64,000 nucleotides of DNA from Escherichia coli (GCF_003019035.1 NZ_CP027447.1), one strand, 5' to 3'. Positions 3,525 through 20,565 are shown, counted from the stretch's first letter. Notes: a model not told the origin generated them from the letters alone. A program made the numbers and translations.

Positions 3525-5023
3525 CAGAAACGCTCCAGTTCAGGGAAAGGTAAATGACCGTGATGCACATGCATGGCACCAAATTCAGCACAGCGGTGTA
3601 GCGTGGGAATGTTTTTCCCAGGGTTCAGCAAACCATCGGGGTCAAACGCCGCCTTGACCGCATGGAAGGTCGTGATTTCATCGCTGTTGAACTGGGCGCA
3701 CATTTGATTGATTTTTTCGCGCCCAATGCCATGTTCCCCACTGATGCTGCCGCCAACTTCAACGCAAAGTTCGAGGATCTTCCCGCCCAGCTCTTCCGCG
3801 CGGGCAAATTCACCGGGTTCGTTGGCATCGAAAAGGATTAACGGGTGCATGTTGCCGTCTCCGGCATGAAAGACGTTGGCAACGCGTAAATCATATTGCT
3901 GCGATAAACGGGCAATGCCTTCCAGTACGCCAGGCAGCGCGCGGCGTGGGATGGTGCCATCCATACAGTAGTAATCCGGGGAAATGCGCCCCACTGCCGG
4001 GAATGCGTTCTTGCGGCCGGCCCAGAAACGTACGCGCTCTGCTTCGTCCTGTGCCAGACGGACGTCAGTCGCGCCCGCTTTCAACAAGATGTCGTTAACC
4101 CGCTCGCAGTCTTCCTGTACGTCAGACTCCACGCCGTCCAGCTCGCACAATAAAATCGCTTCGGCATCGACGGGATAACCGGCATGTATAAAATCTTCCG
4201 CCGCGCGGATCGACAGGTTATCCATCATCTCCAGCCCGCCGGGGATAATGCCATTGGCGATGATGTCACCAACCGCAAGTCCGGCTTTTTCTACCGAGTC
4301 AAAGCTGGCTAACAGCACCCGCGCCACGGGCGGCTTCGGCAGCAGTTTTACCGTCACTTCGGTGGTCACGCCGAGCATACCTTCCGATCCGGTAAACAGC
4401 GCCAGCAGGTCAAAACCAGGCGAATCCAGCGCGTCCGATCCCAGCGTCAGCGCCTCGCCATCCAGCGTTTGCACTTCAATTTTCAGCAGGTTATGTACGG
4501 TTAGACCATATTTCAGGCAGTGAACGCCACCGGCATTTTCCGCCACATTGCCGCCAATCGAACAGGCGATTTGTGAGGACGGATCCGGCGCGTAATAGAG
4601 ATTATGCGGCGCAACGGCCTGGGAGATCGCCAGGTTACGCACGCCCGGCTGCACGCGCGCACGGCGACCAACGGGGTTAATGTCGAGGATCTCTTTAAAG
4701 CGCGCCATCACCAACAACACACCTTTTTCCAGCGGCAGCGCGCCACCAGAAAGCCCGGTGCCTGCGCCACGGGTCACCACCGGCACACGCAGGCGGTGGC
4801 AGACAGCCAGAATCGCCGTCACCTGTTCCATCTGCTTAGGCAGAACAACCAGTAATGGACGCGTGCGATACGCGCTCAACCCGTCACACTCGTAAGGAAT
4901 GATCTCCTCATCGGTATGCAGGATCTCCAGTCCAGGGACATGCTCACGCAGTGCCATCAGTACCGATGTGCGGTCGACATCGGGTAAAGCGCCATCAAGA
5001 CGCTCTTCGTACAAGATGCTCAT
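3524..5023 (-). CDS. glcD: glycolate oxidase subunit GlcD (FAD-linked oxidase)
   Basis: 499-aa ORF, FAD-linked oxidase family; first gene of the minus-strand glc operon. Confidence 0.9.
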   Translation of the reverse strand: MSILYEERLDGALPDVDRTSVLMALREHVPGLEILHTDEEIIPYECDGLSAYRTRPLLVVLPKQMEQVTAILAVCHRLRVPVVTRGAGTGLSGGALPLEKGVLLVMARFKEILDINPVGRRARVQPGVRNLAISQAVAPHNLYYAPDPSSQIACSIGGNVAENAGGVHCLKYGLTVHNLLKIEVQTLDGEALTLGSDALDSPGFDLLALFTGSEGMLGVTTEVTVKLLPKPPVARVLLASFDSVEKAGLAVGDIIANGIIPGGLEMMDNLSIRAAEDFIHAGYPVDAEAILLCELDGVESDVQEDCERVNDILLKAGATDVRLAQDEAERVRFWAGRKNAFPAVGRISPDYYCMDGTIPRRALPGVLEGIARLSQQYDLRVANVFHAGDGNMHPLILFDANEPGEFARAEELGGKILELCVEVGGSISGEHGIGREKINQMCAQFNSDEITTFHAVKAAFDPDGLLNPGKNIPTLHRCAEFGAMHVHHGHLPFPELERF

Positions 5024-5273
5024 GAGTAGGCTTCGCTTTGTTGTGTTGTGTGGCAGCTGATTTTTGCGCGCTGCTTCTGTGAACAGTTATTAAGCGGGCT
5101 TTTCGTTTTCGTCTATCTCTTTAGCTACCGGTCAGACCATTTTTTTTCCAGCTCTGTGACCTTGTCTTGGTTAACTTAATGTTAAATTGATGTAACATAA
5201 TCACTTACGTGATGTGCGTGTTTTGCGAGTTAAGAACAGAAAAATTGGTCCTACCTGTGCACGAGGTCCGGGA
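5024..5273. promoter_or_regulatory. glcD / glcC divergent promoter-operator region
   Basis: 250-bp non-coding interval between divergently oriented glcD and glcC; regulatory role inferred from position. Confidence 0.5.
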
Positions 5274-6038
5274 ATGAAAGATGAACGTCGCCCTATTTGC
5301 GAAGTGGTTGCAGAGAGTATCGAACGGTTAATTATCGACGGCGTACTGAAGGTCGGTCAGCCGCTTCCCTCGGAACGTCGACTGTGTGAAAAGCTCGGCT
5401 TCTCACGCTCCGCACTGCGTGAAGGGCTGACCGTGCTGCGCGGGCGCGGGATTATTGAAACGGCGCAGGGTCGCGATTCTCGTGTCGCACGGCTTAATCG
5501 GGTGCAGGACACCAGCCCGCTGATCCATCTGTTCAGTACGCAGCCGCGAACGCTGTACGATCTGCTCGACGTTCGCGCATTACTGGAGGGCGAATCGGCA
5601 AGGCTGGCGGCAACGCTGGGAACCCAGGCTGATTTTGTTGTGATAACCCGCTGTTATGAAAAAATGCTCGCCGCCAGTGAGAACAACAAAGAGATTTCGC
5701 TGATCGAACATGCGCAGTTGGATCACGCTTTCCATCTCGCCATTTGTCAGGCTTCTCACAATCAGGTGCTGGAGTTTACGCTGCAATCATTGACCGACCT
5801 GATGTTTAATTCGGTGTTTGCCAGCGTAAATAATCTCTACCATCGACCACAGCAAAAAAAGCAGATCGATCGCCAGCATGCGCGGATCTACAACGCGGTG
5901 TTGCAGCGGCTGCCGCACGTCGCCCAGCGCGCAGCACGCGATCATGTGCGGACCGTGAAAAAGAATCTCCACGATATCGAGCTGGAAGGCCACCATTTGA
6001 TTCGCTCGGCGGTGCCGCTGGAGATGAAGCAGGGGTGA
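5274..6038 (+). CDS. glcC: GntR/FadR-family transcriptional activator of the glc operon
   Basis: 274-aa ORF trimmed to MKDERRP start (254 aa); N-terminal GntR winged-helix region. Confidence 0.9.
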   Translation: MKDERRPICEVVAESIERLIIDGVLKVGQPLPSERRLCEKLGFSRSALREGLTVLRGRGIIETAQGRDSRVARLNRVQDTSPLIHLFSTQPRTLYDLLDVRALLEGESARLAATLGTQADFVVITRCYEKMLAASENNKEISLIEHAQLDHAFHLAICQASHNQVLEFTLQSLTDLMFNSVFASVNNLYHRPQQKKQIDRQHARIYNAVLQRLPHVAQRAARDHVRTVKKNLHDIELEGHHLIRSAVPLEMKQG

Positions 6039-6044
6039 CTGCCA

Positions 6045-7187
6045 TCAAATCTGCTTTTCATACAATCGGTAACGCTTGTACGGCTCCGCCCCAATGCGTT
6101 CCAGCATGTTATTCATGCCTGTATTGGTTTCGAGGATCCATGACATCTCCAGCGCATCGATCTTCCGGCGGGCAAACGGATCGCGTAAGGCTTCAATCAA
6201 TAACAACGCAATCACCGGGCCGATGCGGCTGAACTGATACTCGTCCCGCACGCCCATCAGCGGTACTCGCGCAGTTCGCACACCGCTGACTTTTAAACGC
6301 CACAGCAATTTTGCCCAGCCGAAGGGAAAGAGCGATCCGTTCAGATCGGCAATCGCCTCGTTGATGTTTGGCAAGCCGACAATAAACGCGCAGGGTGCAG
6401 AATCAATCTCAGCGATGTAGATCATATCGTCCGGCACCAGATATTTAAGTTGGTCGCCCATGGTCGCGAATTCATGTTCGGTAAACGGCACAAATCCCCA
6501 GTTGTGCTGCCAGCCAGAATTGAAAATCTCACGCAGGATCTGCATCTCTTCGGCAAACCGCTGGCGATTGATGCAGCGAATGGTCACCTTCTTACGCACC
6601 TGATCCATCAGTTTTTTTAGCGCCGGAGAGAAAGTGAGATCGGTTCGCTGCATCCACCACGCCAGTAAATCAATGCCTTTGTGATAACCCAATTGTTCAA
6701 TATGCGCGGCATACCACGGTTTACCGTGCGGCATCATCGCACAGGGTGGTGTATCGAAACCTTCAATCAGTAATCCGCTTTCCTGATTGATATTCAGGCT
6801 GAAAGGCCCGCTGATCTTACTTGCACCTTGTGACTTCAACCACGCTTCCGCTGCGCCAAACAACGCGGCAAAAACCTGCGGATCATCAATGGCGTCAATC
6901 ATGCCGAAATGACCGGTATCTTTGCCGTAACGCTCGCGGTGCAAGGTATCTATTTGCGCGGTAATACGCCCAACTATCTGCCCCGCTTTTTTTGCCACCC
7001 ACGCCTGCCAGATGATATGGTCCGTCCCCGGATTTTTCGCAGACAAATGCTCGTTGCGTTCAATGAATAAAGGGGGTATCCAGTTTGGATCGTCGGGATA
7101 AAGTGATGACGGAAAAGCGATAAATGCCTTAAGGTCATTTTTATTAATTACTTTTTCAATTTTAATCATCAGCAGATCGCATTCCAT
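6045..7187 (-). CDS. yghO: GNAT-like N-acyltransferase, candidate amine N-acylating enzyme (possible ceramide-synthase analogue)
   Basis: 380-aa ORF recognised as YghO; acyl-CoA N-acyltransferase-like fold assignment is from memory of the family, not a motif I can point to; start could be 7169 (MIKIEKV). Confidence 0.7.
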   Translation of the reverse strand: MECDLLMIKIEKVINKNDLKAFIAFPSSLYPDDPNWIPPLFIERNEHLSAKNPGTDHIIWQAWVAKKAGQIVGRITAQIDTLHRERYGKDTGHFGMIDAIDDPQVFAALFGAAEAWLKSQGASKISGPFSLNINQESGLLIEGFDTPPCAMMPHGKPWYAAHIEQLGYHKGIDLLAWWMQRTDLTFSPALKKLMDQVRKKVTIRCINRQRFAEEMQILREIFNSGWQHNWGFVPFTEHEFATMGDQLKYLVPDDMIYIAEIDSAPCAFIVGLPNINEAIADLNGSLFPFGWAKLLWRLKVSGVRTARVPLMGVRDEYQFSRIGPVIALLLIEALRDPFARRKIDALEMSWILETNTGMNNMLERIGAEPYKRYRLYEKQI

Positions 7188-7530
7188 AGTTCTGTGGGTA
7201 ACAAATAATTAACGGTGACAAACAGGTTGCAACAGCAACGAACGGCACCTTAATAATCAACCCAATGAATACAAACGACGAATAAATAGTATTTATTAAT
7301 GATTACGATAAGGTCAGAGACTACACAGAAGCGCCACAATGCCTTTTGTCGATTTAAGGCGACCGGACAAGGCTCCTTCTTAATATATTCATAAATTAAA
7401 TATCATTCACAATAAAAACAAAAAACTCAAATTCATTATTTAAATCAATGTTCATTTTCACACTGATGAAAATACTATCTCATTTATCTTTTATGCCTAT
7501 ATAATCCACCGCATTATTGTCATTTTATTT
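7188..7530. promoter_or_regulatory. AT-rich divergent control region between yghO and the lipid-synthesis operon
   Basis: 343-bp strongly AT-rich non-coding interval (runs such as aataaatagtatttattaatgatta) between divergent genes. Confidence 0.45.
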
Positions 7531-9282
7531 TTGATATCCAATTTTTTCGTGGTGTATATGTCTAATAAAATCTTTACGCATTCCCTACCTATGCGCTATG
7601 CCGATTTTCCAACGCTGGTTGATGCTTTGGACTATGCCGCTCTGAGTAGCGCTGGAATGAATTTTTATGACAGACGTTGCCAACTTGAAGATCAACTGGA
7701 ATATCAGACGTTAAAAGCGCGTGCCGAAGCTGGTGCGAAGCGGTTGTTATCGCTGAACCTGAAAAAAGGCGATCGCGTGGCACTGATTGCCGAAACCAGT
7801 AGCGGGTTCGTAGAGGCTTTTTTTGCCTGCCAGTATGCCGGCTTAGTCGCCGTCCCGTTGGCGATTCCCATGGGCGTCGGTCAGCGGGATTCCTGGAGCG
7901 CCAAGCTGCAGGGTTTACTGGCAAGTTGCCAGCCCGCAGCCATTATCACTGGTGATGAGTGGTTGCCACTGGTCAATGCCGCGACGCATAACAACAACCC
8001 CGAATTACATGTTTTAAGCCACGCCTGGTTTAAGGCATTACCGGAAGCCGATGTTGCGCTCCAGCGTCCAGTTCCGAACGATATCGCCTACCTCCAGTAC
8101 ACCTCCGGCAGCACCCGTTTTCCCCGTGGCGTCATTATCACCCATCGCGAAGTGATGGCTAATCTACGTGCTATAAGCCACGATGGCATAAAATTACGCC
8201 CTGGCGACCGCTGCGTCTCCTGGCTGCCTTTCTACCATGATATGGGACTGGTCGGCTTTCTCCTGACCCCCGTCGCCACGCAGCTTTCAGTAGATTATTT
8301 GCGCACTCAGGATTTTGCCATGCGTCCTCTGCAATGGCTTAAATTGATCAGTAAAAATCGCGGCACCGTTTCCGTTGCGCCGCCGTTTGGCTATGAATTG
8401 TGCCAGCGCCGCGTGAATGAAAAAGATCTCGCTGAACTGGATCTTTCCTGCTGGCGCGTCGCTGGTATTGGTGCAGAACCCATCTCCGCAGAACAACTCC
8501 ATCAATTCGCTGAATGTTTCCGTCAGGTCAACTTTGACGATAAAACTTTCATGCCGTGCTACGGACTGGCAGAAAATGCGCTGGCTGTCAGCTTCTCTGA
8601 TGAAGCTTCCGGGGTTGTGGTTAACGAAGTGGATCGCGACATCCTCGAATATCAGGGCAAAGCCGTCGCGCCGGATGCTGAAACACGCGCCGTATCGACT
8701 TTCGTCAACTGCGGTAAAGCGTTGCCGGAACATGGCATTGAAATCCGCAATGAAGCAGGTATACCTGTCGCGGAACGTGTGGTAGGCCATATTTGCATCT
8801 CCGGCCCTAGCCTGATGAGCGGTTACTTTGGCGACCAGATTTCACAAGACGAGATTGCCGCGACGGGCTGGTTAGACACCGGCGACCTCGGTTATCTGCT
8901 GGACGGTTATCTGTATGTCACCGGACGCATTAAAGATCTGATTATTATTCGTGGCCGTAATATCTGGCCGCAGGATATTGAATATATTGCGGAACAGGAA
9001 CCGGAAATTCATTCTGGCGATGCGATTGCTTTTGTTACCGCCCAGGAAAAAATCATTTTGCAGATCCAGTGTCGGATCAGCGATGAAGAACGTCGCGGGC
9101 AGCTTATCCACGCGCTGGCAGCACGGATCCAAAGCGAATTTGGTGTGACCGCGGCTATCGATCTGTTGCCGCCCCACAGTATTCCCCGAACGTCCTCCGG
9201 CAAGCCTGCCCGTGCGGAAGCGAAAAAACGTTATCAGAAGGCTTATGCTGCAAGCCTTCATGTGCAGGAATCCCTGGCATGA
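7531..9282 (+). CDS. fatty acyl-AMP ligase / acyl-ACP synthetase (AMP-binding superfamily)
   Basis: 583-aa ORF with adenylation motif YTSGSTRFPRGV and C-terminal SSGKPAR-type motif; start may be 7558 or 7591; stop overlaps next start (ATGA). Confidence 0.8.
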   Translation: MISNFFVVYMSNKIFTHSLPMRYADFPTLVDALDYAALSSAGMNFYDRRCQLEDQLEYQTLKARAEAGAKRLLSLNLKKGDRVALIAETSSGFVEAFFACQYAGLVAVPLAIPMGVGQRDSWSAKLQGLLASCQPAAIITGDEWLPLVNAATHNNNPELHVLSHAWFKALPEADVALQRPVPNDIAYLQYTSGSTRFPRGVIITHREVMANLRAISHDGIKLRPGDRCVSWLPFYHDMGLVGFLLTPVATQLSVDYLRTQDFAMRPLQWLKLISKNRGTVSVAPPFGYELCQRRVNEKDLAELDLSCWRVAGIGAEPISAEQLHQFAECFRQVNFDDKTFMPCYGLAENALAVSFSDEASGVVVNEVDRDILEYQGKAVAPDAETRAVSTFVNCGKALPEHGIEIRNEAGIPVAERVVGHICISGPSLMSGYFGDQISQDEIAATGWLDTGDLGYLLDGYLYVTGRIKDLIIIRGRNIWPQDIEYIAEQEPEIHSGDAIAFVTAQEKIILQIQCRISDEERRGQLIHALAARIQSEFGVTAAIDLLPPHSIPRTSSGKPARAEAKKRYQKAYAASLHVQESLA

Positions 9283-10193
9283 ATCAAACTGTCGCGGTGA
9301 CGGGCGCTACCGGGTTTATCGGTAAATATATTATCGATAACCTGCTCGCCCGCGGCTTTCACGTTCGCGCATTGACGCGTACTGCCCGTGCTCACGTCAA
9401 TGACAATCTCATCTGGGTGCGCGGTTCTCTGGAAGATACTCATTCACTTAGCGAACTGGTTGCCGGAGCCAGCGTGGTGGTCCATTGCGCCGGGCAAGTG
9501 CGCGGGCACAAAGAAGAGATTTTTACCCGCTGTAACGTTGACGGCAGCCTGCGACTGATGCAAGCGGCAAAAGAGAGCGGCTTTTGCCAACGTTTTCTGT
9601 TTATCTCTTCGCTGGCGGCGCGCCATCCCGAACTCTCCTGGTACGCAAATTCCAAACACGTCGCCGAACAACGGCTGACTGCAATGGCTGATGAAATTAC
9701 GCTGGGCGTTTTTCGCCCGACAGCCGTGTATGGTCCCGGCGATAAAGAGTTAAAACCGCTGTTTGACTGGATGCTGCGCGGCCTGCTGCCACGACTTGGT
9801 GCGCCAGATACACAACTCTCTTTCCTGCACGTCACCGATTTTGCGCAAGCAGTGGGTCAGTGGTTAAGCGCCGAAACTGTACAGACGCAAACCTATGAAT
9901 TATGCGATGGCGTCGCTGGCGGCTATGACTGGCAACGCGTACGACAGCTTGCCGCCGAAGCCCGTTGTGGTTCTGTGCAGATGGTTGGCATTCCTCTGCC
10001 GGTACTCACCTGCCTTGCGGATATCAGTACTGCGTTGAGTCGCCTGGCAGGTAAAGAACCTATGCTGACCCGCTCGAAAATTCGTGAATTAACCCACGCC
10101 GACTGGTCGGCAAATAATAACCGTATTTCTGAAGATATTAATTGGTTTCCCGGGATTAGCCTGGAACACGCATTACGCAACGGGCTATTTTGA
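9279..10193 (+). CDS. NAD(P)-dependent epimerase/dehydratase-fold reductase
   Basis: 304-aa ORF; N-terminal Rossmann motif VTGATGFIGKYI; translationally coupled to upstream ligase. Confidence 0.8.
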   Translation: MNQTVAVTGATGFIGKYIIDNLLARGFHVRALTRTARAHVNDNLIWVRGSLEDTHSLSELVAGASVVVHCAGQVRGHKEEIFTRCNVDGSLRLMQAAKESGFCQRFLFISSLAARHPELSWYANSKHVAEQRLTAMADEITLGVFRPTAVYGPGDKELKPLFDWMLRGLLPRLGAPDTQLSFLHVTDFAQAVGQWLSAETVQTQTYELCDGVAGGYDWQRVRQLAAEARCGSVQMVGIPLPVLTCLADISTALSRLAGKEPMLTRSKIRELTHADWSANNNRISEDINWFPGISLEHALRNGLF

Positions 10194-10224
10194 TTGTCTT
10201 GTTTAAAGGTGTGTTAACGTTTCT

Positions 10225-10473
10225 ATGGTAAATCGTGAAATAGTAATGGATTACATCCTTTCCTGTTTACAGGATTTGGTCGAAAACGGTGTGGAAATTA
10301 AGCCCAACAGCGATCTCGTCAACGATCTTGGCCTGGAGTCGATCAAAGTGATGGATCTCTTAATGATGCTGGAAGACAGATTCGATATTTCCATTCCTAT
10401 TAATATTCTGCTGGATGTCAAAACCCCTGTGCAATTAATGGAAACTCTACTTCCATGGCTGGAGAATAAATAA
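10225..10473 (+). CDS. acyl carrier protein (dedicated)
   Basis: 82-aa acidic ORF with phosphopantetheine-attachment-type motif DLGLESIKVMDL; stop overlaps next start (TAATG); start may be 10246. Confidence 0.75.
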   Translation: MVNREIVMDYILSCLQDLVENGVEIKPNSDLVNDLGLESIKVMDLLMMLEDRFDISIPINILLDVKTPVQLMETLLPWLENK

Positions 10474-11645
10474 TGGGGCTATACGATAAATATGCGCGCC
10501 TTGCTGGCGAGCGACTGCAATTTAGTGACAACGGGTTAACGCCGTTTGGTACCTGTATTGATGAAGTGTATTCCGCCACCGAAGGTCGGATCGGCAATAA
10601 AAAAGTGATTCTGGCCGGGACCAATAATTATCTCGGTTTAACCTTTAATCATGATGCCATCGCCGAAGGTCAGGCAGCGTTAGCGGCCCAAGGCACCGGC
10701 ACCACCGGTTCTCGTATGGCTAATGGCAGTTATGCGCCGCATCTGGCGTTAGAGAAAGAGATTGCCGAGTTTTTCAATCGCCCTACCGCTATCGTTTTTT
10801 CAACCGGTTATACCGCTAATTTAGGCGTCATCAGCGCACTTGCCGACCATAACGCCGTGGTGTTACTGGATGCCGACAGCCACGCCAGTATTTATGACGC
10901 CTGTTCTCTCGGTGGCGCGGAAATTATTCGTTTCCGCCATAACGATGCTAAAGATCTGGAACGGCGCATGGTTCGCCTCGGTGAACGGGCGAAAGAGGCG
11001 ATTATCATCGTTGAGGGCATCTACAGCATGCTCGGTGACGTTGCGCCGTTAGCGGAAATTGTTGATATCAAACGTCGTCTCGGTGGTTATTTGATTGTCG
11101 ATGAAGCGCATTCGTTTGGCGTGTTAGGCGCAACGGGGCGCGGACTGGCTGAAGCCGTTGGCGTTGAAGATGATGTGGATATTATCGTTGGTACTTTCAG
11201 TAAAAGTCTGGCCTCGATTGGCGGTTTTGCTGTCGGTTCGGAAGCGATGGAAGTGTTGCGCTACGGCAGCCGCCCGTATATTTTTACCGCCTCTCCTTCT
11301 CCGTCCTGCATTGCGACCGTGCGCTCGTCGTTAAGAACCATTGCCTCACAACCAGAGCTGCGGCAAAAGCTGATGGATAACGCCAACCATCTGTATGACG
11401 GTCTGCAAAAACTGGGTTATGAGTTAAGTTCACATATTAGCCCGGTAGTGCCGGTAATAATCGGTTCGAAAGAGGACGGTTTACGCATCTGGCGCGAGCT
11501 TATTTCGCTGGGCGTTTATGTGAATCTTATCCTGCCACCTGCCGCGCCTGCAGGCATCACTCTGCTGCGCTGTAGCGTAAACGCTGCCCACAGTCATGAG
11601 CAAATCGATGCCATCATTCAGGCATTTGCTACTCTGAAGCAGTAA
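10473..11645 (+). CDS. PLP-dependent alpha-oxoamine synthase (serine palmitoyltransferase / KBL / BioF family)
   Basis: 390-aa ORF; class-II aminotransferase fold with PLP-lysine motif GTFSKSLASIGGF; K-12 bioF and kbl are located elsewhere. Confidence 0.8.
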   Translation: MGLYDKYARLAGERLQFSDNGLTPFGTCIDEVYSATEGRIGNKKVILAGTNNYLGLTFNHDAIAEGQAALAAQGTGTTGSRMANGSYAPHLALEKEIAEFFNRPTAIVFSTGYTANLGVISALADHNAVVLLDADSHASIYDACSLGGAEIIRFRHNDAKDLERRMVRLGERAKEAIIIVEGIYSMLGDVAPLAEIVDIKRRLGGYLIVDEAHSFGVLGATGRGLAEAVGVEDDVDIIVGTFSKSLASIGGFAVGSEAMEVLRYGSRPYIFTASPSPSCIATVRSSLRTIASQPELRQKLMDNANHLYDGLQKLGYELSSHISPVVPVIIGSKEDGLRIWRELISLGVYVNLILPPAAPAGITLLRCSVNAAHSHEQIDAIIQAFATLKQ

Positions 11646-11679
11646 TGTGAGCCCGCCGTGGTGTTGCGCCACGGCGGGT

Positions 11680-12759
11680 TTAATGTTGTCTGTCATACCA
11701 ATACACCAGGCTCAACGCCATCAGGACAAACGCTACCGGTAAACCGAGCGCGGTAACAGGTGCACTCAACGCAAATAGCAACCCCAGATTGACCATGATT
11801 TGATAGCTGATCCAGGTGAGTAAGCCAACGATGACGCCTACAGCGAGACGGCTACCCATCCCTGGCGAGCGCGGGGCGCTAAAGGTGAACGGCACAGCCA
11901 GCAAAATCATCGCCAGGGTCAGGATCGGTTGCCCCAGTTTTTCCCACAGTGCAAGGCGGTATTCGCTGCTGGGTTGTCCGGTTTCCTGCAAATAATGGAT
12001 GTAATGATTAAGCTGACGGACAGAAAAAGTATTCCCCGGCATCGATAACTCTTCAAGATCCATACTGGTGAAGGCCGATTGCCAGGCAAGATTATCTGAT
12101 GTTTCCAGCGTTTCTTTGCCATTCAACCATTTTTTATGATTCACACCATGCAGGATCCACGTTTTGTCGTCTTCAATGGAGGCACTGCGTGCAAAAATGT
12201 AGGATTCGAGCGAGAGATCGTCGCGATAATGAAATATCTCCACGCCCACAGGCTGGCCCTGCTCGTTCAGCGATTTCACCGTCACAAATTCATTACCGCG
12301 CCTGGCCCAAAGCATATTGCCGGTAATGTCATCGTCCTCCCCCAACGCGGTGGCAGTCGATTTGATTTGCAGCGCCTGTTGCTGCAATGGCGACGCCACC
12401 CACTCATCTATCGCGCCTAACGAAACAGTCCACAATATCCCGGCAACCAGCGCCACCAGTGCAATACGGAAGATAGAAAACCCAGTGCTGCGAATGGCGG
12501 TAAGCTCACTGTTTTTCGATAACTGCCCCAGGCCAACAATCCCTCCCAATAATGCGATAAATGGCGAAAGTTCGACCAGTGTACGCGGTAAGGTCATCAG
12601 CACCACCAGCACCGCCTGAGTCCAGCGATAACCGCCCGGGCTGACATCATCCAGTTCGTTAATCAGGTTGAAGGTGGTAAAAAGCGGCAGCAATAGCCCT
12701 GCGGCGGCGGCAAAACCGAGAAAGAGATGACGGATTAAATAGCGACTGAAAACATTCAT
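11680..12759 (-). CDS. LptG-like permease (YjgP/YjgQ family)
   Basis: Multi-pass membrane ORF; start set at MNVFSRYLIRH so that it overlaps the upstream gene stop by 4 nt (longest ORF extends to 12840). Confidence 0.7.
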   Translation of the reverse strand: MNVFSRYLIRHLFLGFAAAAGLLLPLFTTFNLINELDDVSPGGYRWTQAVLVVLMTLPRTLVELSPFIALLGGIVGLGQLSKNSELTAIRSTGFSIFRIALVALVAGILWTVSLGAIDEWVASPLQQQALQIKSTATALGEDDDITGNMLWARRGNEFVTVKSLNEQGQPVGVEIFHYRDDLSLESYIFARSASIEDDKTWILHGVNHKKWLNGKETLETSDNLAWQSAFTSMDLEELSMPGNTFSVRQLNHYIHYLQETGQPSSEYRLALWEKLGQPILTLAMILLAVPFTFSAPRSPGMGSRLAVGVIVGLLTWISYQIMVNLGLLFALSAPVTALGLPVAFVLMALSLVYWYDRQH

Positions 12760-13826
12760 CGGGAAAATTTCTGCAGCAAAGAGAAGTCGCGTGCGACCAG
12801 CATCAGCAGGCCCATTAGCATGAGTCCGGGTACTAACCACAAACCAGGAATGAGGGGAATCGCACCGTTAGCCACCAGCGTACGGCAGACGTCGCCGCCA
12901 TAAAAAATGGCAACAAACAGCAACGTCAGTGGCAATAACGTTGAAAATCGCCCTTGCCGCGGTTTTACCCGACTTAATGAAATGGCCAGCAGCGCCATCA
13001 ACAATGCGGTCAGGCCACGGCTTTGTCGCCATTGCAGTTCGGCATGATCGGCTGGAAAGACGGAGCGCGCCAGCTCCGTGACCGATTTTGCTTTGCGTTT
13101 GACGTTAGGGCTTTGATCCAGCTGATTCAGATGTAATTGCAGATTACGGTAGATCTGTTCGTTGTCGTCACGCCCCTGATGATCGAGAAGATAGGCGGTC
13201 CCGTTATGCAACATAACGGTCGGTTTCTCAGGTGATGGGTCAACCACATCAACCGAACGGGCGCGGAAAATGCGGGTTCGATTGGCAGTAGAAGTATAAA
13301 TCAGCGCGTCAGTCAGGCGATTATTATCCTGATCAACCGTCTGCGAAAGGATCATTCGTCCGTTATCGTTAGTGTTAAATTTCTTTGCCCGCAACTGGCG
13401 AACATCCAGCTCCGACTGCGACTGTTGCTCCAGTTGATAAATCTGCGCATAAGCCCACGGCCGACCATACATCGACAGAAGGGTGACAAAAATACTTAGC
13501 GGTATCGCCAGATAAAGAACGGCTTTGTACAAGCGTCCCGGACTGCCCCCCGCCGCAGAGATAGCGGTAATTTCCGAGTCGGTATACATCTGCCCTAGCG
13601 TCACGCCAACTGACACATACAGACCAACAGGTAACAACATCTCCAGTGCAATCAGCACTTTGTAGAAAACGATATCCAGCACAACATCAAGAGCTAAGGT
13701 CCCATTTGCCGCTTCGGTCAGATAACGCTGTGCGGAGTAGCTGGCGAAAATAAAGATCAGAAAACCGACGATAATCAGCACCAGACGGCGCGTACCACGC
13801 ATGATGTAGTGTTCAACCAGCTTCAT
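12756..13826 (-). CDS. LptF-like permease (YjgP/YjgQ family)
   Basis: 356-aa ORF, N-terminal TM helices, large periplasmic loop, C-terminal TM helices; paired with LptG-like gene. Confidence 0.7.
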   Translation of the reverse strand: MKLVEHYIMRGTRRLVLIIVGFLIFIFASYSAQRYLTEAANGTLALDVVLDIVFYKVLIALEMLLPVGLYVSVGVTLGQMYTDSEITAISAAGGSPGRLYKAVLYLAIPLSIFVTLLSMYGRPWAYAQIYQLEQQSQSELDVRQLRAKKFNTNDNGRMILSQTVDQDNNRLTDALIYTSTANRTRIFRARSVDVVDPSPEKPTVMLHNGTAYLLDHQGRDDNEQIYRNLQLHLNQLDQSPNVKRKAKSVTELARSVFPADHAELQWRQSRGLTALLMALLAISLSRVKPRQGRFSTLLPLTLLFVAIFYGGDVCRTLVANGAIPLIPGLWLVPGLMLMGLLMLVARDFSLLQKFSR

Positions 13827-13856
13827 CTCACTAACACCCTCAATCCTTTGAATTTT

Positions 13857-14420
13857 TTATTCATTGATCAGTTTCTGCGCCAGCGCAATGACATGATCTA
13901 CCTCTTCCGGCGTCAGGCTGCCGTCCTTTGCCCACTGAATTTGCCCGTCTTTATTCAGCACCAGAATGGTTGAACTCTGCTCCGGCAACCGCCAGGCAAC
14001 GCGTCCCAGTCCATTGCCGTCAATAACGAATTGCGCCCACGGATAGCGGCGTTTATTTTTTTCGATTTTGCCAACGACAAAATAGCCAGTACCGAAGATG
14101 GCATCATCGGTGTTCACAATGGTGGTGGGCTGAAAACGATCCTGCGGAAAGTTTGCCGCTTCAACCGCTTTAATTAACAGTGAGTTCTTTTTCTTCGCCG
14201 ACTTACGCCCGGCGATATACTGAATAATGCGGACTTTTCCCGCCAGCTGTGTGCTGTTCCACTTTTGGTAGTGAATTTCGTCGTCGCTATTCAGAAGCAG
14301 CTCGCCGCCTTCCTGGATATAAACGGGGGTAACCGTTTTGCCAGTGACGAAATTGTGTGCCTGCACACCCTGGGCTAAGAGCATGATAATCAGCGCAATA
14401 ATCAAACGAGATGACATCAT
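13857..14420 (-). CDS. secreted/periplasmic protein of unknown function (possibly thioredoxin-like fold)
   Basis: 187-aa ORF with N-terminal signal peptide MMSSRLIIALIIMLLAQGVQA; fold assignment is a guess. Confidence 0.55.
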   Translation of the reverse strand: MMSSRLIIALIIMLLAQGVQAHNFVTGKTVTPVYIQEGGELLLNSDDEIHYQKWNSTQLAGKVRIIQYIAGRKSAKKKNSLLIKAVEAANFPQDRFQPTTIVNTDDAIFGTGYFVVGKIEKNKRRYPWAQFVIDGNGLGRVAWRLPEQSSTILVLNKDGQIQWAKDGSLTPEEVDHVIALAQKLINE

Positions 14421-14428
14421 TGCTCCGG

Positions 14429-15253
14429 TTATAGCGGAAAACGCGAAATCAGCAGCTCTAAGCGCTGGCGAATATCGCTATCCAGCGCCACCGGTGCATC
14501 ATACGACTGGCGGTTTTCCATATCATCCGCCACCATGTCGTCGTGTTTATCCCCCATCAGGCCATTAATGGCGGCGAGGAAGCGGGAAATCTGTAACGCC
14601 TCTTTATTTTCAGGATCAAGCGATCTTAAGGTGTCGTAATAAGAAACCTGCTGGCTGATGATTTTTCGCACATCATGAAATTCCCTGCCGGTGAGTCGCG
14701 GTTTGGCAATTATCTCTTTCAGGGTATGCATTTGCTTTTGCCGATAGGCAATAAAACCGCTTACGCTTTCTAACTGGCTATGGCGTAATGAATAGTTCAC
14801 CAACGACCAGACCGGAGAGCTTAAATAAACCCGTAACAGGTTGCCGTAATACGACACAATATTTTTCTTACCGTTACGAAAACCGTCCTGAAAACGCCCC
14901 AAAAAAACGGTCGTTTTGCCGAATAAAAATCCGGCCTGATGCTTCTTTAAATACAGCCGTTGCGCAAAACGCAGGTGCTTGTAGCGCGCTCGCATGTATT
15001 TATACTTTTTGCGCTCATCGTCGGTAAGTATTTTGCCTTTTGCTTGTTTCAGCGTTAAGCGAAGTAACTCTTTGCGATTTACACCATCCAGCCAGAATCT
15101 CAAACATAAGGCATAATTGTCATGAATAATCTCCGGTGAACAGCGCAAAGTGATCGTTGGCGGCAAGCTAACCTGTGTGTCAATAACATCATTATCATCA
15201 ACAGCAATAAATAAACGCTCAATGACCTCAAGTGGAAAGTATTTTCTCATCAT
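14429..15253 (-). CDS. hypothetical basic protein, no recognisable domain
   Basis: 274-aa ORF; start overlaps yghQ stop (ATGA coupling) so likely translated. Confidence 0.55.
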   Translation of the reverse strand: MMRKYFPLEVIERLFIAVDDNDVIDTQVSLPPTITLRCSPEIIHDNYALCLRFWLDGVNRKELLRLTLKQAKGKILTDDERKKYKYMRARYKHLRFAQRLYLKKHQAGFLFGKTTVFLGRFQDGFRNGKKNIVSYYGNLLRVYLSSPVWSLVNYSLRHSQLESVSGFIAYRQKQMHTLKEIIAKPRLTGREFHDVRKIISQQVSYYDTLRSLDPENKEALQISRFLAAINGLMGDKHDDMVADDMENRQSYDAPVALDSDIRQRLELLISRFPL

Positions 15254-16602
15254 TGGAATTTTTCTCCGACTCCGTTATAGACCAATAAATGGCGACGGAG
15301 AAAAGTCCTTAATGTCGGTGCTAACGACAGGATCACATCCAGACATTGACCACCGAAATAAGCAAATGCAGCCCCCATTACGCCAAACAGATGACAAAAC
15401 ATAAACAACAAAATAACGTAAGCTAACGATGCAATAGTTTGTGCTATCAAAAAAGCGCGCTGTTTTCCCGCCATCAATAGCAATGACTCCTGAGGGAAGC
15501 CCAGCATCGAGATCACAATTGCGCCCAGCATCACCTGAATCAGGTCATACGCTTCGAGATACTTAACGCCAAACACCAGCGAAATAAGCGGCTTGCCGAC
15601 GATCAACACCGCGAGCGCCACCAGAATTCCGATTCCGCCCGCCAGTAAACCTGACTTCACGCCTAACAACCACGGTCTGGTGGTGCGCGGATCTAAACGC
15701 ATCACCTCTGGGTAAAAACTTTTGCCCAGTAAACCCGCTGGCGTTCCGGCGGCGTCGAAGAATGTCATGGCGATTTTAAATAACCCGGCGGCAGCGGGTC
15801 CTAACACGATCCCCACCAGCACTGTGCTGCACGAGTTACGCGCCGACCAGATGGAGTGGGCAATGTTGGTTGACCAGACAAAACTCCACGCGCCTTTGAT
15901 GTGTCGGGCAGACTCAAACAGATTCAATTTGAACGCGTTATGGATATTTCTGCGGCGTAATTCGCGCGCGGCAAACCACCAGTACATGGTGCCGCCAACC
16001 AGATTCGACACGTACCAGGCAATAACAAAGCCCGCAAAACCAAAGTCAAAATACCAGGCTACGACGCTCCCCGCTGCGCGCAGAAAAGGTTTCGTCGCTT
16101 GCTGTACAGCAATTAGATCGAAGCGATCTACCGCACGCAGAATGCCGGTCGGCGTGGAGGAAGCCATTGAAGGAATGAGCGTGCAATACAGCGCTGCCAG
16201 CCAAAAGCTTTGGTCATCCAGACCTAATGAATGGGAAAGAAAAGGGAGTAAGGCAATGCCGCCGACAATCGCCACCGCGCCGCTGACGATATCCAGCGAG
16301 AAGGAAAATGAGACGACATTGCGGAATTGCTGCGGATTATTGTTGGTTAATGCTGGTGTTCCGTACTGAACCACCAGCTGCCATGTCTGAAACTTAATAA
16401 AATCGCTGATCGACTTGGCGTACGATTGTACAATCACCAGTACGCCAAACATGGCGGGCGTCATCCCTTTACCGGCACACGAGAGCGCCAACAGACCCAG
16501 TAAAGCGCTCACGACATTACTGGAGCCTAACCAGGCGCTATTGCGAATAATGGTGCGAAACGCGCCATCTGCAAACCAATGTTTGATGTTAAAACCCGCC
16601 AA
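15250..16602 (-). CDS. yghQ: MOP-superfamily (Wzx/MurJ-like) flippase, full length
   Basis: 450-aa polytopic membrane ORF; recognised as YghQ but longer than the 355 aa I recall for K-12; start uncertain. Confidence 0.75.
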   Translation of the reverse strand: MAGFNIKHWFADGAFRTIIRNSAWLGSSNVVSALLGLLALSCAGKGMTPAMFGVLVIVQSYAKSISDFIKFQTWQLVVQYGTPALTNNNPQQFRNVVSFSFSLDIVSGAVAIVGGIALLPFLSHSLGLDDQSFWLAALYCTLIPSMASSTPTGILRAVDRFDLIAVQQATKPFLRAAGSVVAWYFDFGFAGFVIAWYVSNLVGGTMYWWFAARELRRRNIHNAFKLNLFESARHIKGAWSFVWSTNIAHSIWSARNSCSTVLVGIVLGPAAAGLFKIAMTFFDAAGTPAGLLGKSFYPEVMRLDPRTTRPWLLGVKSGLLAGGIGILVALAVLIVGKPLISLVFGVKYLEAYDLIQVMLGAIVISMLGFPQESLLLMAGKQRAFLIAQTIASLAYVILLFMFCHLFGVMGAAFAYFGGQCLDVILSLAPTLRTFLRRHLLVYNGVGEKFQ

Positions 16603-16647
16603 TTCAGCCTGACCTTATCGTTGATAGTAAAAAGTATCCCGCCAGCC

Positions 16648-17406
16648 TTAAGTTAAACTTCGGCGGTCAGAAACGATGGCAACCAGAGAAACCGCCTTCT
16701 GTGCCTGTTCCAGCACTTCGCTGTAAGGCGCTCTGGAATCAATCTCAAGAATTTTTGTGCCGTTATAGCCAATCGTCGACATGACGCCGATTTTGTCCTG
16801 CAGCTCGGCATAGTCATGGTCAGGCTTGCGGGAGATGGCAGTATCAATATCAATCCCCAAACGAATGATTAATTCAGGACGGTATTGCGCCATTTGTTGG
16901 TATAAACGCCGTTCGCGCTGCGCCAGAAACATGCTGATTTTCCCGGTCGCACGTTCGACGCCGATCCCCGGTCCGTCATAATAAAAGCCCGAAATTTCAG
17001 CCTGCGGGAAGCGATCGCTGACCACCAGAACGCCACTTTGCGCCAGTCGCTGAACCTTGCGTAGATTCGCCATTCTTCGCAGCGAGAAGCAGTACATAAT
17101 CACCGCCGCCCATACCGCCGGAGATTTGGTTTTCATGCTTTGGGTTTTCGAGGATTTGGCCGCCAGTCGCCGTTCGAGCCAGACGCCAACCAACGGCAAT
17201 CGTTTGATTTTGTCGCCGTCTTCGCCCGAGAGCAGCCCCAGATAGCGCCGCTCGGTTTGCCAGTGTTGTTGCAGCGATTTCACGAGGTCGGTGGTCAGTG
17301 TGGATTTACCGGTGCCATCACACCCGACCACCGCAATCAGCCCCGGAATGTAGTTGGGCTGCGGCGCGGTTGTACTATTAACAGTTTGTGTTTGTAGTGC
17401 GTCCAT
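16648..17406 (-). CDS. yghR: P-loop NTPase/kinase-like protein
   Basis: Walker A GCDGTGKST; conserved SDRFP and ARKPDH motifs shared with yghS and yghT; no ABC signature LSGGQ. Confidence 0.8.
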   Translation of the reverse strand: MDALQTQTVNSTTAPQPNYIPGLIAVVGCDGTGKSTLTTDLVKSLQQHWQTERRYLGLLSGEDGDKIKRLPLVGVWLERRLAAKSSKTQSMKTKSPAVWAAVIMYCFSLRRMANLRKVQRLAQSGVLVVSDRFPQAEISGFYYDGPGIGVERATGKISMFLAQRERRLYQQMAQYRPELIIRLGIDIDTAISRKPDHDYAELQDKIGVMSTIGYNGTKILEIDSRAPYSEVLEQAQKAVSLVAIVSDRRSLT

Positions 17407-17437
17407 TCGTTAAATCATCCCCTATCCATTTTGGTGA

Positions 17438-18151
17438 TCAGGAAAGCGCAGCGTGAATTGCGCGTAGTGACGCTTGCAGAATTTCATCGGCTGGTTGCCG
17501 ACCATCCAGTTCAAGGATCTTTGCGCCATTGAATGTCAGTTGCGGCGTAACGGCGATTTTTTCCTGTAACGCTGCCAGTTGGTGGTCAGGTTTACGCGCA
17601 AACGCGGTTTGTTCATCAATGCCAAGACGAATCAACAATACGGGCAAATAAGACGCCATCCATTGGTACAGCTTCAGCTCGCGCTGCCTTAACATTTTTA
17701 TCCAACCGTTACCGCCCGTGGTTTTTGCCAATTGCGGGCCATCAAAGCGAAAACCCGGCACTTCAACCTGCGGGTAGCGGTCGGTGATGAGCAGATAGCC
17801 TTGCTGGCTTTTACACAACATTTTGCGAAACTTGTACGCCCGCCAGCAGGAAAGCAGATAGATAACCAGCGCAGTAATATTGCCAGGCGGTGTGGAGGGC
17901 TTTTCGTGCACATGTGCCGCTTTACTTCGCAGATAACGCCCAAAAGGTGCGCCAATAACAGGGAGCTGTGAAATCCATTCGCCAATTCGCCCGGACGATT
18001 GCCCGAGATAAATGTGTTCTGTTGGCATTGTTGCTGCCAGTTCATTTACCAGGCTTGCCGTGAGGGTCGATTTACCTGAACCATCACATCCTACAATGGC
18101 AATAACACGCACTGGCGTGGAATTAATTATTGACATATTACGTTGATTCAC
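17438..18151 (-). CDS. yghS: P-loop NTPase/kinase-like protein (paralogue of yghR)
   Basis: Walker A GCDGSGKST; TDRYP and ARKPDH motifs. Confidence 0.8.
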   Translation of the reverse strand: MNQRNMSIINSTPVRVIAIVGCDGSGKSTLTASLVNELAATMPTEHIYLGQSSGRIGEWISQLPVIGAPFGRYLRSKAAHVHEKPSTPPGNITALVIYLLSCWRAYKFRKMLCKSQQGYLLITDRYPQVEVPGFRFDGPQLAKTTGGNGWIKMLRQRELKLYQWMASYLPVLLIRLGIDEQTAFARKPDHQLAALQEKIAVTPQLTFNGAKILELDGRQPADEILQASLRAIHAALS

Positions 18152-18324
18152 GAAAAACCCGGCAGCAAATAATGTATTGAATATTACGTGGTCCGTGCTC
18201 AGAATATCCGTTCAACCTTATTGTGACAATGGTTAATTGTGACATTGACCTGAATTACGCTTTCATAAAAACATATTAACCAAATAAATATTTTTAATGG
18301 ATATTTAAATTAAAGGATATATTC

Positions 18325-19017
18325 ATGCAGTCAATAACACCTCCATTAATTGCCGTTATTGGTAGCGATGGTTCAGGCAAGTCAACGGTGTGTGAACATC
18401 TCATTACCGTTGTCGAAAAATATGGTGCTGCCGAAAGAGTTCATTTAGGAAAACAGGCCGGAAATGTCGGTCGTGCAGTGACAAAATTACCGTTGATGGG
18501 AAAATCCTTACATAAAACAATTGAACGAAATCAGGTGAAAACAGCAAAAAAATTGCCAGGACCAGTTCCGGCGCTGGTAATTACAGCGTTTGTCGCCCGT
18601 CGCTTACTGCGCTTTCGTCATATGCTTGCCTGTCGTCGTCGCGGGTTAATTGTTCTAACCGACCGTTATCCTCAGGACCAAATTCCTGGCGCTTACGATG
18701 GTACAGTGTTCCCACCTAACATTGAAGGTGGTCGTTTTGTCTCATGGCTGGCAAGCTAGGAACGTAAAGCGTTTCACTGGATGGCGAGCCATAAACCGGA
18801 TCTGGTCATCAAACTCAATGTTGACCTTGAAGTTGCCTGCGCGCGTAAACCCGACCATAAACGGGAATCGCTGGCGAGGAAGATTGCCATAACGCCACAG
18901 TTAACCTTTGGCGGTGCACAACTGGTTGATATCGATGCTAATCAGCCACTGGAAAAGGTGCTGATTGATGCAGAAAAAGCGATTACGGATTTTATGACCG
19001 CGCGTGGTTATCACTAG
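18325..19017 (+). pseudogene. yghT: P-loop NTPase/kinase-like protein interrupted by an in-frame TAG at 18757-18759
   Basis: 144-aa and 78-aa ORFs are in the same frame; the 693-nt span is 231 codons (230 aa plus stop) with one internal TAG; Walker [10 protein letters not shown]. Confidence 0.6.
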
Positions 19018-19027
19018 TCAAAAATGG

Positions 19028-19058
19028 AAATGCCCGATCGCCAGGACCGGGCATTTTC
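19028..19058. terminator. stem-loop terminator between convergent yghT and pitB
   Basis: aaatgcccg / cgggcattt inverted repeat with 11-nt loop followed by TTTTC. Confidence 0.5.
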
Positions 19059-19065
19059 AGGAAGG

Positions 19066-20565
19066 TTAAATCAACTGCAATGCTATCCAGTACAACCCAC
19101 CAGAAAGAAAAATCGCCGCCGGTAAAGTAAACACCCACGCCATCAGGATGCTGGTTACCGTTTTACGCTGTAACCCACCGCCGTCCACCACCATCGTCCC
19201 TGCTACCGCAGACGAGAGGACGTGTGTTGTGGAGACGGGCATCCCAATATAACTGGCAAGGCCGATAGACACTGCCGCCGTCATTTGTGCCGCCATGCCT
19301 TGCGCATACGTCATGCCGCGCTTACCAATCTTCTCACCGATGGTCATCGCTACACGACGCCAGCCAATCATGGTGCCGATGCCGAGCGCCAGTGCTACCG
19401 CCATGATGATCCACACCGGTGCGTACTCAATGGTGCTTAACATATCGCTGCGCAGTTTTTTCAGCAGGTTCTGGTCTTCTTTACTGACGCCTGGCAGTTT
19501 CGCCAGCTTCGCGGAGGTATCAGAGATGCACAGCATAATGCGGCGCAGCTGGCTGCGCTGACTCACGCTTAACGGCTCGTAACTTTCCATATTGCCTGGC
19601 AGCATCGTTTTAACGCGCGCAATCGCATCAAAGGTATTTGCCGGATGACAGTGAAACTCTGTTACTTGCGTGCCATCAGTCGATGTCGCAGGCAATGGAG
19701 GTTCCATCGTAATCAACTTCTGCGGCAGTTCAGGATGCTGTTGCAGGTAGTGTTCGAAGTTGGTGACGGCATCGCGGGTACGGGTAATTTCATAGCCGGA
19801 CGCGTTCATATTGACGACGAAGCCAGCAGGGGCAATCCCCACCAGTACCAGCATCACCAGGCCGATCCCTTTCTGCCCGTCGTTCGCGCCGTGCGAAAAC
19901 GCCACGCCCGCAGCGGAAACAATCAGCGCAATACGCGTCCAGAATGGCGGCTTACGTTTGCCTTTTTTCTTTTTGCGATCTTCCGGAATGCGGTGAATAC
20001 GGTCACGCTTTTTCGTCCCGCTCCAGAAACGGCGCAGCAGGAAAATCAGACCACCCGCAATGACCAGGCCGACGATAGGGGAAACAATCAGCGAGGAGAA
20101 AATTTTGGTCACTTCACGCAGGTTTAACGCATCCATCACCGATGAGCCGGTTAACAGCGCGTTGGTTAAACCGATGCCGATAATCGCACCAATCAAGGTA
20201 TGCGAACTGGAGGCCGGTAAACCAAAGAACCACGTTCCCAGGTTCCAGATAATCGCCGCCAGCAGCATGGAAAAGACCATCGCCAGGCCGTGAGTTGACC
20301 CCATATTCAGCAACAAATCGGTTGGCAACATATGGACAATGGCATAGGCAACGCTAAGTCCGCCTAGCAATACGCCAAAAAAGTTAAAAAATGCCGCCAT
20401 CACCACAGCAAGTTGTGGTTGCATGGCACGAGTATAAATAACGGTTGCCACCGCATTCGCCGTGTCATGAAAACCATTGATTGCTTCGTAGAACAACACA
20501 AATGCCAGAGCAAGTAATAACAAAAGCCCTGTGTATATATCAAGGCCAACAAATAAATTTAGCAT
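19066..20565 (-). CDS. pitB: low-affinity inorganic phosphate transporter
   Basis: 499-aa ORF with PitA/PitB-type sequence ([35 protein letters not shown]); position next to yghT. Confidence 0.9.

Follow-up and report, generated by a model that had tools for sequence, protein, structure and literature searches.

A five-gene locus of Escherichia coli as a very probable copy of the proteobacterial ceramide synthesis module, and its neighbouring transport and accessory genes

Clustering of all five genes of the ceramide pathway has been reported only for Caulobacter and for Escherichia coli BL21 (PMC9386255). In BL21(DE3) the genes ECD_02850–02854 were named aca/yghO, aasR, epi, acpR and spt (Padilla-Gomez et al. 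2022, Front Microbiol, PMC9386255), co-expression of AasR_Ec, AcpR_Ec and SPT_Ec gave 3-oxo-sphinganine in vivo (PMC9386255), and in a 2026 preprint E. coli UTI89 and Caulobacter are shown side by side with their ‘sphingolipid operons’ (10.64898/2026.04.12.717747). Our analyses concern positions 6045–11645 of a 64 000-nucleotide stretch of E. coli DNA (NZ_CP027447.1), the whole of which we call the window, and lead us to conclude that the five genes found there very probably represent, in E. coli, the ceramide (sphingolipid) synthesis module of proteobacteria. An earlier note on this DNA, made from the sequence alone, had regarded such a locus as unexpected in E. coli, a view that cannot be upheld given its publication for BL21(DE3) (PMC9386255): the five-gene E. 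coli locus is already published, has been partly tested in the laboratory and is named in standard annotation, where the NCBI Prokaryotic Genome Annotation Pipeline (PGAP) gives the label ‘spt: serine palmitoyltransferase’ to the last gene. There is accordingly nothing new on the five genes as such, their identities, their Caulobacter homology and the activity of three of their products being on record; what we add is context, namely that the locus extends beyond E. coli B to about three-quarters of complete genomes and to other enteric genera.

The likeness to the Caulobacter ceramide pathway, which the earlier note had pointed out, is borne out by direct comparison. The Caulobacter vibrioides locus was obtained by exact look-up of its Spt protein, and BLASTP was run in both directions between the two loci. 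Two-way best matches were found for all five ceramide proteins, as well as for YghQ/CC_1166 and LptF2/G2, and the operon order aasR–epi–acpR–spt is identical. YghO matches CC_1154 (bCerS/Aca) with 43.7% identity over 380/380 amino acids (aa) (E 5e-111), in agreement with the homology given in the published Table S2 (PMC9386255); AasR matches CC_1165 (43.6% identity), Epi matches CC_1164 (CerR; 33%), AcpR matches CC_1163 (41% over 51 aa, spanning the serine attachment site) and Spt matches CC_1162 (53.7%).

In particular, the 390-aa enzyme is assigned as a serine palmitoyltransferase (SPT) by curated models, solved structures and active-site residues alike. Spt scores 599.4 bits against NCBIfam NF047599, the serine palmitoyltransferase equivalog (cut-off 500), and stays below the cut-offs of the bioF (333.7 bits, cut-off 426), Kbl (296.7 bits, cut-off 460) and CqsA-type (221.5 bits, cut-off 428) models; of the curated oxoamine synthase equivalog cut-offs, only that of NF047599 was passed. 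Its best match in the PDB is the Sphingomonas paucimobilis enzyme (SpSPT; 375 bits), with Kbl structures at about 200 bits and BioF at about 175, and it is 54% (53.7%) identical to Caulobacter Spt as against 30–31% to E. coli BioF and Kbl. Contrary to an outcome that the earlier note had allowed for, the enzyme thus does not group with BioF or Kbl. An alignment with SpSPT, Caulobacter Spt, E. coli BioF and E. coli Kbl shows that the equivalents of SpSPT H159, D231, H234, K265 and R390 are kept, so that the pyridoxal 5′-phosphate (PLP) lysine (K244, within GTFSKSL at 11190–11210) and the catalytic His/Asp/His/Arg set, whose comparison the earlier note had proposed, are conserved, and that S264 and T294–A295 agree with Spt sequences and not with BioF/Kbl. 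Spt is 387/390 identical to BL21 ECD_02854, and in extracts the BL21 enzyme converts L-[14C]serine to 3-oxo-sphinganine with acyl-AcpR preferred over acyl-coenzyme A (acyl-CoA) (PMC9386255); the amino-acid substrate, which the earlier note held could not be read from the sequence, is serine, as this 99%-identical protein was assayed with L-[14C]serine. At the equivalent of SpSPT R378 (11580–11590; just before PPATP in SpSPT) the E. coli and Caulobacter Spt proteins both carry Leu. Arg378 of SpSPT is presumably of functional importance, and the Leu at this position may be linked to the preference for acyl-ACP (acyl carrier protein) over acyl-CoA.

Two proteins would supply Spt with its acyl chain. 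AasR scores 872 bits against the fatty acyl-AMP ligase model NCBIfam NF006624 (cut-off 600) and 1262 bits against PDB 3PBK, to which it is about 99% identical (seven substitutions and one inserted residue in 563 aa); at this level of sequence identity AasR is EcFAAL, the protein crystallised as 3PBK. EcFAAL makes acyl-AMP and hands the acyl chain on to an E. coli ACP, with CoA not accepted (eLife 2021, PMC8460268), and the ligase is hence not the ordinary CoA ligase that the earlier note had considered as a contrary outcome; neither sphingolipid nor serine palmitoyltransferase came up in text searches of the same paper. AasR is 551/562 identical to BL21 ECD_02851, with one extra Asn codon here, and the YTSGSTRFPRGV motif lies at 8098–8133. 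The start of aasR differs between RefSeq strains, PGAP placing it at ATG 7591 (BL21) or at ATG 7558 (SCU-301), and a mechanical open reading frame (ORF) list begins the gene at TTG 7531; the first native residues of the 3PBK chain, MRYADFPT, correspond to a start at 7591. AcpR is 80/82 identical to BL21 ECD_02853, which is labelled by beta-alanine in vivo and so carries 4′-phosphopantetheine (PMC9386255). Its matches to ACP models are weak and below cut-offs, and the serine of its LGLESIK (DLGLESIK at 10324–10347) aligns with that of DSL in CC_1163, which marks it as the phosphopantetheine serine; the gene stands immediately upstream of spt and is itself AT-rich (39.8% GC, the rest of the block having about 50%).

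Epi, encoded between aasR and acpR, is an extended short-chain dehydrogenase/reductase (SDR) orthologous to CC_1164 and 294/304 identical to BL21 ECD_02852. It contains the Rossmann motif TGxxGxxG (TGATGFIG), the VTGATGFIGKYI motif at 9297–9332 and YxxxK (YANSK) at 9642–9656. For YghO, which is 380/380 identical to BL21 ECD_02850, searches of Pfam, NCBIfam and PDB sequences gave no match, and a search of 1.84 billion cluster representatives returned 6502 relatives at E up to 0.001, from which search an alignment of 29 sequences was drawn. The AlphaFold model (pLDDT 92.8) confirms at fold level that YghO has a tandem-GNAT fold, and we regard it as a predicted N-acyltransferase homologous to bCerS/Aca; the description ‘GNAT-like’ in the earlier note is therefore sustained by predicted structure, the sequence libraries having given nothing. 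YghO adjoins the spt operon in E. coli, Serratia and Pluralibacter, and distant YghO homologues adjoin an Spt-like aminotransferase or an LptF/G pair. The idea that YghO acts independently of spt, suggested by its survival in K-12 and its many enterobacterial homologues, was rejected, those homologues adjoining spt operons. The top-scoring distant relative (P0241) has 784 aa, double the normal length, with two matched stretches, and may be a fusion or tandem duplication of ceramide synthase. A lysine acetyltransferase screen of 2018 reportedly mentions yghO; literature searches turned up no assay of E. coli YghO for N-acylation of a long-chain base.

All five ORFs are present and intact where the earlier note had placed them, and every motif quoted there was found. 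Its proposal that the last four genes are translationally coupled stands for two of the three junctions: aasR and epi overlap by 4 nt (ATGA) and acpR and spt by 1 nt (TAATG), whereas epi and acpR are 31 nt apart. The region between yghO and aasR (7188–7590) has 31.8% GC as against 51% for the whole window; putative silencing of this AT-rich stretch by a nucleoid protein would fit non-expression in LB. An Rfam scan of 5000–19500, this region included, found no family, and a scan for sigma-70 consensus promoters gave a count not above the shuffled background. The total from a terminator scan was likewise not above background, the stem at 11648–11682 being by far the longest found. Horizontal transfer was rejected on base composition, the 13-kb block that contains the locus having 49.9% GC against 51% for the window.

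Since the five ORFs are intact, encode proteins 97–100% identical to BL21(DE3) ECD_02850–02854, show dN/dS values of 0–0.14 and have homologues of 70–82% identity arranged alike in Serratia and Pluralibacter, they are, as judged from sequence, real genes and not chance ORFs. The DNA of 6045–11645 occurs at a coverage of at least 80% in 4068 of 5426 complete E. coli genomes, and matches strain SCU-301 exactly; spt is near full length in 4092 of the 5426 (75%). In Serratia liquefaciens and Pluralibacter gergoviae yghO and the spt operon are accompanied by other genes of the block, at 60–82% protein identity over the whole, and the flanking genes differ. Considering also that dN/dS against BL21 is 0–0.14 for every gene of the block (a rough measure, given the small counts), the comparison indicates purifying selection on the block both in E. 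coli, where 75% of complete genomes retain it, and in other Enterobacterales.

The genes that follow spt (Table 1) include a pair, lptG2 and lptF2, whose products pass the family models TIGR04408 and TIGR04407 and are 28–30% identical to the canonical K-12 LptG and LptF. PGAP calls them lptG and lptF; because they share no more than this with the essential canonical pair, and because K-12 lacks them and is viable, which shows them to be dispensable, these RefSeq names are misleading. Neither a second lptB in the locus nor an ATPase gene within 11680–19017 was found. In Caulobacter, sphingolipid transport depends on LptF2/G2, which bind the lipopolysaccharide (LPS) ATPase LptB (10.64898/2026.04.12.717747), and by analogy lptF2/G2 is a candidate sphingolipid exporter in E. 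coli. The product of the ytfJ-like gene is probably periplasmic, to judge by its N-terminus; the gene adjoins lptF2/G2 in Pluralibacter and is absent together with them from the Serratia locus, and seems to travel with the transporter pair as one unit.

Beyond these lies a gene for a 274-aa protein, which has no match in Pfam or NCBIfam, and yghQ, whose product and CC_1166, described as a ‘potential flippase’ in Caulobacter, are two-way best matches (26% identity over 406 aa, E 1e-43). yghQ is kept in the Serratia and Pluralibacter loci and is cut by IS5 in K-12. Synonymous divergence from BL21 is raised over 14429–16602 (dS 0.35 for the 274-aa gene and 0.19 for yghQ, with 0.05–0.12 for the neighbours), the 274-aa protein being just 248/274 identical to that of BL21; a patch of recombination or a distinct allele may lie behind this. 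The remaining genes, yghR, yghS and yghT, are paralogous, with weak dTMP-kinase and P-loop matches below cut-off; a PDB sequence search with YghR gave nothing useful. They stand beside spt in Serratia, at 68–71% identity. There, yghO and the spt operon travel with yghQ, the 274-aa gene and yghR/S/T, and in Pluralibacter with yghQ, the 274-aa gene, lptF2/G2 and ytfJ; a Serratia liquefaciens metagenome scaffold (L007, 1–11125) carries yghO, the spt operon, yghT/S/R, yghQ and the 274-aa gene, with lptF2/G2 and the ytfJ-like gene not within 10 kb. Codon 145 of yghT is TAG in the window (18757–18759), where SCU-301 has CAG (Gln) and BL21 yghT has no in-frame stop, so that, judged from its sequence, the yghT of this strain is a pseudogene by nonsense mutation. 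The remaining 12 genes are all intact.

Table 1. Positions of the genes and other features of the block, counted from the first nucleotide of the window
Feature	Position	Strand	Remarks
yghO	6045–7187	-	380 aa; divergent from the aasR–epi–acpR–spt operon
yghO–aasR intergenic region	7188–7590		403 bp, AT-rich; presumed site of promoters and any control sites
aasR–epi–acpR–spt operon	7591–11645	+	
aasR (acyl-AMP ligase)	7591–9282	+	562–563 aa
epi/cerR (extended SDR)	9279–10193	+	304 aa; predicted reductase for the 3-keto group
acpR (dedicated ACP)	10225–10473	+	82 aa
spt (oxoamine synthase, serine palmitoyltransferase)	10473–11645	+	390 aa
Hairpin, 16-bp stem	11648–11682		Between convergent spt and lptG2; likely two-way terminator
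lptG2	11680–12759	-	LptG family model passed
lptF2	12756–13826	-	LptF family model passed
ytfJ-like	13857–14417	-	TIGR01626, 216 bits; hydrophobic, signal-peptide-like N-terminus
Gene for 274-aa protein	14429–15253	-	CHAD-like all-helical fold; start overlaps yghQ stop by 4 nt
yghQ	15250–16602	-	MOP-family flippase-like membrane protein
yghR	16648–17406	-	P-loop, nucleotide kinase-like
yghS	17438–18151	-	P-loop, nucleotide kinase-like
yghT	18325–19017	+	P-loop, nucleotide kinase-like; in-frame TAG here

Taken as a ceramide module, the locus would work as follows. AasR would adenylate a long-chain fatty acid and load it onto AcpR with no use of CoA, as has been shown for near-identical E. coli proteins, and Spt would condense acyl-AcpR with L-serine, releasing CO2, to give 3-oxo-sphinganine, as shown for the BL21 protein. 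By homology, YghO would add a second acyl chain to the amine and Epi/CerR would reduce the 3-keto group. The order of these last two steps is unsettled. Reduction followed by N-acylation, as the earlier note had it, is one of two published models, but in Caulobacter Spt and bCerS are cytoplasmic and CerR periplasmic, a localisation that favours N-acylation first (Klein laboratory, JBC 2024), and acylation before reduction is also the model in PMC9386255. Of the neighbouring proteins, YghQ would flip the lipid, LptF2/G2 would draw it out of the inner membrane with the help of LptB, the ATPase shared with the LPS system, and head-group chemistry, probably phosphate-based, would fall to YghR/S/T and the CHAD-fold protein. 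No protein of the E. coli block matches the Caulobacter head-group proteins CpgA–D (a CDP-alcohol transferase, a DAGK-type ceramide kinase, CpgC and a cytidylyltransferase) at E < 1e-3, and therefore the head group is probably different from that of Caulobacter; the P-loop kinase-like character of YghR/S/T, taken with the absence of CpgA–D, suggests one that would be phosphate-based. Literature searches for functions of yghQ, yghR, yghS and yghT found none, and the accessory roles considered here for YghR/S/T, the CHAD-fold protein, YghQ and the YtfJ-like protein are not proposed in the literature found.

Other chemistry for the core enzymes has to be weighed against this scheme. The 390-aa enzyme could be taken for an additional BioF or Kbl that serves biotin or threonine metabolism among unrelated neighbours, as it is a PLP fold-type I oxoamine synthase like these two and has all core catalytic residues in common with them; considering, however, that it reaches just 334 and 297 bits on those models (below their cut-offs of 426 and 460) as against 599 on the Spt model, that it is 30–31% identical to E. 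coli BioF/Kbl and 54% to Caulobacter Spt, and that its gene overlaps, and is always linked to, that of a dedicated ACP, we regard this possibility as effectively refuted. We also argue against a module that makes some other aminolipid, whether from a non-serine substrate, as an N-acyl amino alcohol or as a CqsA-type signal. Cysteate acyltransferase, CqsA, Kbl and BioF are detectable homologues with other substrates, the SpSPT R378 equivalent is Leu here and no native product has been identified, all of which would be compatible with such a module; but Caulobacter Spt, a proven ceramide enzyme, has Leu at 378 too, and the curated Spt equivalog cut-off is the only one that the E. coli enzyme passes, which makes this alternative highly improbable.

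Several points nevertheless weigh against the view that the locus is a ceramide module at work in E. coli. In the literature searched, no wild-type E. coli was reported to contain a sphingolipid. BL21(DE3) with empty vectors, grown in LB, had no SPT activity and no 3-oxo-sphinganine (PMC9386255), and therefore the chromosomal operon seems to be off under laboratory conditions. The activities of E. coli YghO and Epi are assigned by homology from their sequences, a hint of them being given by the sphinganine-like and ceramide-like spots seen in E. coli by thin-layer chromatography and attributed ‘possibly’ to ‘intrinsic enzymes’ (PMC9386255), and with no counterpart of CpgA–D at the E. coli locus the final product cannot be named. 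It is formally conceivable, then, that the enzymes work and that the locus is a silent leftover in E. coli, kept off (for example by its AT-rich promoter region), no sphingolipid being made in nature. The inactivity of empty-vector BL21(DE3) in LB, the 31.8% GC of the yghO–aasR intergenic region, the loss of spt from K-12 and about one-quarter of complete genomes with no reported defect, and the nonsense pseudogene yghT in this window would all fit; on the other hand, the other twelve genes are intact with dN/dS against BL21 of 0–0.14, spt is full length in 4092/5426 genomes, and Serratia and Pluralibacter, with the block at other places in their chromosomes, retain it at 60–82% identity, unlike decaying relics, and we think a silent leftover unlikely. 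Conversely, we put forward tentatively, and as a possibility that in its full form is rather doubtful, that E. coli and many Enterobacterales naturally make a sphingolipid so far undetected, with an anionic phosphate-based head group added via YghR/S/T and the CHAD-fold protein, with flipping by YghQ, with export by LptB2–F2G2 and with the YtfJ-like protein replacing LptC2.

That E. coli has been thought free of sphingolipids is probably explained by an IS5-linked loss in K-12. In MG1655 an IS5 copy (IS5LO/insH9) stands in place of 7148–15533 (8.4 kb), and the deletion removes the first 40 nt of yghO, all of aasR–epi–acpR–spt, lptG2, lptF2, the ytfJ-like gene and the 274-aa gene, and the 3′ end of yghQ. 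The interest that remains lies in native production, in the uncharacterised accessory genes and in the head group. Sphingolipids of other bacterial species have effects on the robustness of the outer membrane, on polymyxin sensitivity and on host signalling; if it is true that commensal and pathogenic E. coli make sphingolipid in the host, this would matter for gut and urinary-tract biology.

Finally, we consider how the locus stands to the systems already described. With the Caulobacter crescentus locus (CC_1152–CC_1168 = ccna_01210–01226) it shares the five ceramide genes, the operon order, the flippase candidate CC_1166 and the LptF2/LptG2 pair, at an identity of just 24–54%. CpgA/B/C/D, CC_1152, CC_1167, LptC2 and a metallophosphatase have no counterpart in the E. 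coli locus, and conversely the YtfJ-like protein, the CHAD-fold protein and YghR/S/T have none in Caulobacter; on this comparison of sequences the E. coli locus is not a member of the Caulobacter-type ceramide phosphoglycerate head-group system, and native lipid production, proven for Caulobacter, is not proven for E. coli. The S. paucimobilis SPT (2JG2) is the best solved-structure match of Spt, at 47% identity, with the PLP-binding H159/D231/H234/K265 and the carboxylate-binding R390 kept; it differs in having R378 where the E. coli and Caulobacter enzymes have Leu, and the E. coli enzyme favours acyl-AcpR over acyl-CoA. LptF2 and LptG2 resemble the LptB2FG extractor in passing its family models, whereas the E. 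coli pair is divergent from the canonical one and dispensable, and in Caulobacter a pair of this type serves sphingolipid export. As for EcFAAL (3PBK), the same gene carries two names, one in the structural and one in the lipid literature. Closest of all is the BL21(DE3) locus, from which ours differs at strain level (0–11 amino-acid changes per protein, the extra Asn codon of aasR and, outside the core, the nonsense codon of yghT), and with which it shares the same gene order and the same neighbours, glcC on one side and lptG2 through to pitB on the other.

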